From assembly GCF_035594765.1 (NCBI RefSeq), contig NC_085841.1:160565574-160629573 (forward strand): DNA of 64,000 nt, in the 5' to 3' direction. Numbering within the stretch: position 1 is the stretch's first letter; every line of letters begins with the position of its first letter. Below, in pieces: positions 7,196 to 8,181 of this stretch. Under the pieces are notes generated by a model, which saw only the letters and a list, made by a program, of their open reading frames with translations, had not been told where the DNA came from and did no database searches. Both the position numbers and the translations under genes were made by a program. The stretch comes from Anolis carolinensis. Lineage: Eukaryota.

Positions 7196-8169
7196 TGTGA
7201 TGACTCATGGGCCTTGTAGTCCTGCTCATGACATTGTAATGCCTGATGAAGAAGAAAACTTGGGTTTTTTACCTTTCCAGTCAGAACTGGAATCTTCTCA
7301 GCCAGATCTTTCCCAGGCAGATCTGGGAACCTTGCACCTGCAAGAAAGTTGTGTCCCAGAAGTATGTCAAACAAACCCTGAGCCTACATCTCCCGTGTTC
7401 TCTCGCCATGAGTTTTGTAAACAACAGAGGGGTTTGGAAGCAGCTTCGCGCAGGAGTGCTAGAATAGCAGCTAAGAGTGTAGCCAATTAAGCCTGCTTTT
7501 CGTGAGAATCTTTAAGGAGTCAAACATCTGGTCTCAGAGTTTAGCTTTCGTTTCTGGTTCCCAGAGAACTGCTTCGGCGGGAAAGTTAGACTCTATATAG
7601 GTGTTTTACCCGCGAAGTAACTTCGCGGAGTCAATTCGTCAGCCTCCGGAGCGAGTTGTGTCTGGACAGCGCGCTCCGTTTCAAGCCTCGTTCCTGCTCA
7701 AGCCTTGTCCTTGTTTCCAGCCTTCGCTCCTGTTTCCCAGCCTTTGTTTACCTACGGACCTTGCCTTGATTCCCAGGACTAAACCTTGCCTTGTTTCACG
7801 GATTTTACCAAGTTATTCCACGGACCTTGTTCTTGTTCCTCGTTACCTTGTTCCACGATTCAAGCCTTGTTTCAAGTATCAAGTTATTTCCTAGCCTTGC
7901 TCAAGTTCATGGACTAAAGGACCTTGTCATCTCCCCTCACTTTGCCTGGCAAAGTGAGTGTTTCGGTTATTGGATTACAACTTTGGACCTTAATATTTCA
8001 TATTGGACATTGTTTCCTTGGACTAATTTTGACCTTTCCTGAAAGGTCTGCTTCTGGACTAACTTTTACATTTGCTTTTATTAACTTTATATATTTCCTT
8101 AATAAAGATATTAGATAGAATCTGGTCTCTGTGTATGGTTATTGGTGCTCTGTAGCCTGGGTCGTGACA
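7196..8169 (+). repeat. 5' LTR (TG...CA)
   Basis: Starts TGTGATGAC and ends GTCGTGACA; direct repeat of 12645-13618; TATATA at 7594-7599; AATAAA at 8101-8106. Confidence 0.97.
7594..7634 (+). promoter_or_regulatory. LTR TATA box and predicted transcription start (~7625)
   Basis: TATATA lies 31 nt upstream of GCGGAGTCAA, the sequence complementary to the PBS. Confidence 0.7.
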
Positions 8170-8171
8170 GT

Positions 8172-8181
8172 TTGACTCCGC
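8172..8181 (+). promoter_or_regulatory. Primer-binding site, self-priming type
   Basis: TTGACTCCGC begins 2 nt after the LTR, lacks the TGG expected of a tRNA PBS, and is the exact reverse complement of 7625-7634. Confidence 0.8.

Follow-up and report, generated by a model that had tools for sequence, protein, structure and literature searches.

The window analysed here, a stretch of 64,000 nucleotides from Anolis carolinensis, carries a young, recently inserted Ty3/gypsy chromovirus in which the Ty3/gypsy order LTR-gag-PR-RT-RNase H-integrase-LTR is accompanied by a target-site duplication and a polypurine tract, and in which both gag and pol are open. The sequence ACACC is found on both sides of the LTR-to-LTR element as an unstranded target-site duplication (7191..7195 and 13619..13623). 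The 5' LTR (7196..8169, 974 bp) lies on the + strand, as do all the stranded features given below, and has the form TG...CA. The 3' LTR (12645..13618), which is preceded by the polypurine tract (12631..12644), ends in GA and not CA; besides this penultimate base, the two LTRs differ by one mismatch in 972 aligned bases.

Within the 5' LTR, a TATATA box (7594..7599; 89% identity over 37 diverged copies) is followed by the putative self-primer GCGGAGTCAA (7625..7634), the predicted 5' end of the element RNA, which was placed at 7625 on the basis of the distance from the TATA box and a pyrimidine/purine step. Going by the position of the AATAAA polyadenylation signal (8101..8106), R would measure about 500 nt and U5 would be short. 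Between 7700 and 7900, the long R region is rich in pyrimidines and contains short repeats of the CCTTGTT and CAAGCCTTG type. The primer-binding site (PBS) TTGACTCCGC (8172..8181) has no TGG and starts 2 nt past the LTR.

The gag gene (8213..9199), whose first ATG lies at 8213 in a frame open from 8168, encodes Retrotrans_gag, DUF4939 and a CCHC zinc knuckle. It is overlapped in the -1 frame by pol (9154..12939), encoding PR, RT, RNase H, integrase, SH3 and, after the integrase, a chromodomain (PF00385, E=3.1e-09); the top solved-structure match is Ty3 Gag-Pol. Past the chromodomain, the pol frame continues for about 98 codons within the 3' LTR, and its end at 12898-12939 reads RRSARIAAKSVAN, the same bases being present in the 5' LTR at 7449-7490. 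This C-terminus includes the HMGN-like motif RRSARIAA (12898..12921), comparable to RRSARIAT of yeast Dot5 and RRSARLSA of HMGN, both reported as nucleosome acidic-patch binders (PMC12871379). The form RRS-x-RIAA[KR] is present in 20 of the 23 copies of the window family (out of 40) in which the anchor was found, an anchor that itself selects on RIAA. The tail is a candidate chromatin tether, and no paper on it was among those listed by the literature searches.

The family of the window element is large and young: 40 scored genome matches are 99-100% identical, and 440 genome copies fit one primer-to-PBS pattern. Four of the five close relatives reached by protein search are named Anolis. Public Anolis gene models named as a methyltransferase (P0003) and a kinase (P0007) contain the gag of the window element, probably owing to annotation read-through into element copies. 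Elsewhere in the window, a 368-codon open frame occupies 36654-37760, and interspersed repeat pairs of 71-90% identity (1673-1975/19942-20243, 16404-16556/25789-25940 and 24316-24398/29110-29192) probably represent SINEs or DNA-transposon remnants.

Complementarity between the PBS and the LTR

The original prediction had proposed a PBS without TGG that pairs 10/10 with a site 31 nt after the TATATA box, and both the coordinates and the letters were confirmed. The PBS at 8172-8181 is the exact reverse complement of 7625-7634, the distance from the start of TATATA (7594) to the start of the primer (7625) is 31 nt, and the PBS begins 2 nt after the CA that ends the 5' LTR at 8169; TGG is absent from the first 6 nt after this LTR. 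A splice-junction primer was also considered and is unneeded, since the complement is contiguous.

Chance controls were performed on both sides of the pairing. When the LTR was subjected to 3000 dinucleotide shuffles, 11 yielded a 10-nt complement at any position (PBS offsets 0-5). Random host 20-mers with a match of at least 10 nt anywhere in the LTR numbered 51 in 5000, and such a match within the 17-nt interval placed 28-33 nt past the TATA box was found in none of 200000. Four contig sets, guessed to derive from RNA, displayed no pile-up of starts, although contigs cannot show a start; one contig shows a loose end behind 8169.

The sequence after the LTR has a second 10-nt complement, located in U3 (7516..7525), which pairs 10/10 with 8170-8179. 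It may be argued that the sub-lineage of the window uses this site as its primer by means of a second start site, as the pairing is flush with the LTR end and the full 10-mer is present in 30/30 of the closest copies. The diverged copies, however, carry the full 10-mer in none of 37 cases and mostly keep just the first 6 nt of the site followed by CATCTG; no TATA[AT]A box lies ahead of 7516-7525, and pairing here loses the 2-nt spacer common to all the families described below. Use of the U3 site by the sub-lineage is thus considered highly improbable, and as a general primer the site was rejected in view of the absence of the full 10-mer from 37/37 diverged copies. The site may instead bind a factor or represent a duplicate that has decayed.

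Seven families in one genome

Other gypsy families were collected from Pfam searches of the genome in 40 stretches of 10 kb, picked by eye so as to be diverse; the letters A, B, D, E, F, G and H are labels of the present analysis, A being the window family. The RTs of the other families are 44-65% identical to that of the window element, and the seven families carry six or seven different PBS sequences. In every family, 9-12 nt of the PBS pair with a site in the family's own LTR that lies 30-32 nt beyond a TATA-like box, the primers being GCGGAGTCAA in family A, GCGTGTGGCAA in B, GCGTTGGGCAA in D, ATTCTTGGCTT in E, ATTCAGTACAA in F, AGTAGTGTTAT in G and GTTGGTAACAA, which is decayed, in H. In one set of 30 loci, 26 (family B) carry another PBS, to which 9-11 nt of the LTR are complementary.

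Considering the window together with the 40 loci, a perfect own-LTR complement of 10-12 nt was found in 29/41, one of 9 nt in 2/41, one of 6 nt in 1/41 and none in 9/41. In six positives, the complement itself served to select the LTR end from several candidates; in the others, the end was set by the LTR pair or by a motif of the family. Seven of the nine loci devoid of a complement lack an LTR pair and one lacks an LTR end, the ninth being L170. The 10-12-nt helices begin 2 nt past the LTR end in all cases except L184 (+1), with the window also showing the tied U3 match at +0.

Across eight representatives, 2-4 pair types occur at every one of the first 11 positions of the pairing, with one G:U and zero mismatches, and the first base of the primer is a purine preceded by a pyrimidine in 8/8. 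The TATA-like box 30-32 nt upstream of the primer was detected in 13/16 by a pattern that was broadened once the sequences had been seen, and by eye in the other three. As a control, complementarity on the PBS side was compared with that of the host DNA behind the 3' LTR, giving 9-12 nt versus 4-7 nt in 17/17 elements. The covariation anticipated by the original prediction is accordingly present: complementary letter pairs differ among the seven families of this genome.

In an RT tree of 24 copies, all drawn from the present genome, five families with at least three rows each constitute one side of a supported branch. The representatives L188 (family E), L178 (family D) and L154 (family B) carry no Pfam chromodomain, yet keep the self-primer layout; families B and D have an acidic tail at the pol end, encoded in the 3' LTR, E stops after the SH3 domain, and family F (L190) has a chromodomain. 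One family is often nested in or beside another (L153, L158, L172, L177 and others), and internal regions are common to copies with different LTR lengths.

Conservation within family A was assessed in a set of 40 diverged copies, in 37 of which the primer was mapped. Identity to the window amounts to 368/370 positions (99.5%) in the primer, as against 619/881 in the preceding spacer and 713/962 downstream (70-74% in the flanks). Both sites are present in 36 diverged copies, with 10/10 pairing in 31 of these.

Variation among the 440 copies that fit the primer-to-PBS pattern was examined at one base pair. No change was seen in 418 copies, a C>T in the primer only in 7, a G>A in the PBS only in 11, and both in 4, where 0.375 would be expected (Fisher p=2.5e-4). 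In L209, the C>T is found in the primer of both LTRs together with the matching G>A in the PBS, and the two double-variant copies with a readable 3' LTR (L209 and L235) both carry the change in both LTRs. Of the four doubles that the pattern search yielded, L235 alone had a readable 3' LTR; this LTR was unreadable in the other three and in two of the seven singles. Among these seven primer-only copies, two are changed in both LTRs (L238 and L243, which keep the old PBS base and hence a G:U pair) and three in the 5' LTR only; in L216, the primer change is confined to the 5' LTR and the PBS is unchanged. The coupled variant falls on a CpG at both sites, so that age or methylation can inflate the coupling. 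By visual inspection of 15 rows, two neighbouring control CpGs were changed in 2/28 readable places, compared with 4/15 for the primer. The coupled variants fit the primer being copied into the PBS, for which they are suggestive evidence and not proof.

These observations also bear on the possibility that a host tRNA half, a tRNA fragment or another small RNA primes the element, the match to the LTR being incidental. The PBS sequences were compared with 53 distinct tRNA sequences of the host that represent 26 anticodon types; tRNA-Met(CAT) is among them, and Asn, Glu, Tyr, Val and Sec are not. The longest exact match to this incomplete set is 6 nt for the window PBS and 6-8 nt for those of the other families. 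The expectation that the window PBS would match neither the 3' ends nor the halves of host tRNAs was therefore borne out for this partial set, with no match above 6 nt. The incompleteness of the set, and the comparison being one with tRNAs alone, leave some room for an outside primer. Against it stand the short matches themselves and the different PBS sequences, each of which matches its own LTR at the same place; moreover, an outside primer would not couple variants of the LTR with those of the PBS. Priming by an outside molecule thus deserves very little credence.

Predicted RNA folding and the proposed priming reaction

In Tf1, three duplexes are described, one formed by the primer with the PBS and two by the PBS flanks, each with LTR sequence (PMC10085805). 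For this 'pretzel' structure, the central and the third helix are supported in family A and the second is weak. The predicted third helix joins an arm in the LTR (8121..8149) with an arm in the leader (8190..8212) that ends at the first ATG (8213), and, by crossing the primer:PBS helix, this U5:leader helix would create a pseudoknot. Its significance was p=0.005 in the window against 200 shuffles and p<=0.01 in 6/6 family-A copies; among families B, D, E, F and G, none of nine copies reached significance (p 0.16-0.89). The predicted second helix, between 7638..7645 and the LTR end at 8159-8168, is weak (p=0.17 against shuffles) and not significant in 14/16 copies. The minimum-energy fold of 7625-8230, computed with a program that cannot draw pseudoknots, lacks the primer:PBS helix (z=-0.97); forcing the helix costs 7.4 kcal/mol, and it forms when 7625-8200 is folded.

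The pairing may be real and serve a structural role in packaging, dimerisation or translation control, with another molecule acting as the primer. Covariation establishes pairing and says nothing on priming, and the leader also forms a long predicted helix beside the gag ATG, both of which agree with such a role. However, in all seven families the start of the helix lies exactly 2 nt beyond the end of the LTR, the place at which minus-strand synthesis must begin, and no tRNA site was recognised there in the comparison with the partial tRNA set. A solely structural function is accordingly regarded as very unlikely.

Self-priming is very probably the mechanism at work, the transcript starting at about 7625, its first 10 nt pairing with the PBS, RNase H cutting after nucleotide 10 and RT extending into U5. 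The anatomy of the element, the 10-bp pairing with its conservation and the complementary letter pairs of six further families could be seen directly. The claim of self-priming made at the outset is supported by the seven-family covariation, the negative result of the partial tRNA comparison and the predicted third helix of family A.

In the proposed sequence of events, transcription would start at 7625 or within a base or two of it, and the first 10 nt of the RNA would pair with the PBS, which lies about 545 nt downstream, the U5:leader helix bracing the fold. RNase H would then cut after nucleotide 10, as in Tf1, and RT would extend the 3' end released in this way across the 2-nt spacer and on into U5; the primer may belong to the same RNA or to the partner RNA of a dimer. 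During the later plus-strand synthesis, the primer would be copied back into the PBS, and such copying would keep the two sites matched while the families diverge.

Relation to known self-primed elements

Tf1 and Tf2 of Schizosaccharomyces pombe, along with Tj1, Tosmo and Tcry, are experimentally self-primed Ty3/gypsy chromoviruses. The window element has in common with Tf1/Tf2 the lack of a tRNA PBS, a PBS complementary to the predicted RNA start, a chromodomain integrase and potential flanking helices of the three-duplex structure (PMC10085805). It differs in a primer of 10 nt, whereas that of Tf1 has 11 nt and is cut between bases 11 and 12 (PMC7175516), in the distance of about 545 nt between primer and PBS, in gag and pol occupying two overlapping frames where Tf1/Tf2 have one ORF, and in its vertebrate host, the present element being known from its sequence alone.

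The original prediction had cited self-priming as an earlier proposal for the vertebrate sushi group, and this is indeed in print. Both PMC10085805 and PMC6317226 cite Butler et al. 2001 for the proposal on the Tf1/sushi elements of vertebrates. According to PMC10085805, self-priming is common to the Tf1/sushi elements, which occur in fungi, vertebrates and non-seed plants, and it is likewise stated for vertebrates in PMC6317226 and PMC4600332. In these accounts, the self-priming of Tf1 is experimentally demonstrated and that of its vertebrate relatives is predicted from sequence. Hairpin priming is reported for some chromoviruses (PMC3601003). Neumann et al. 2019 (PMC6317226) similarly predict self-priming, on the basis of PBS-LTR complementarity, for Tcn1-clade chromoviruses and TAR copia elements, which differ in having plant hosts, TAR being in addition a Ty1/copia element.

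The host, the chromodomain and the type of PBS suggest that the window element belongs to the Tf1/sushi group (V-clade): it has no PBS for a tRNA 3' end, and its PBS is complementary to the LTR at the expected RNA start. The V-clade elements sushi-ichi, Amn-ichi of Anolis, Amn-ni and Amn-san are likewise vertebrate chromodomain Ty3/gypsy elements; Amn-like elements are placed in this clade by PMC2774666, which cites a full-length chromodomain element from Anolis, and a V-clade lineage is described as active in reptiles (PMC4131045). The window family may be Amn-ichi itself, the published lizard member, or a separate one. No report combining self-priming, gypsy and Anolis was found in the literature searched, and a prior description of the window PBS is possible in primary papers outside this coverage; seven-family covariation within one amniote genome was likewise not found.

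Thus, the kind of system is already known and its picture is unchanged by the present element; the present analysis adds the comparison of seven families, the coupled variants and, as a separate lead, the HMGN-like pol tail. The seven families, with their fixed geometry and hundreds of young copies, constitute an unusually clean amniote comparative case, and the single-base predictions of start sites make the old proposal checkable by RNA end-mapping alone. A tentative extension of the self-priming reading is that the coupled variants (4 against 0.4 expected) may record rewriting of the PBS from the LTR primer, that the seven families, some of them without a chromodomain, may each keep a private primer, and that the integrase tail may grip nucleosomes through its HMGN-like motif. 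If true, this would be evidence, at the population level, of priming without a tRNA in an amniote.
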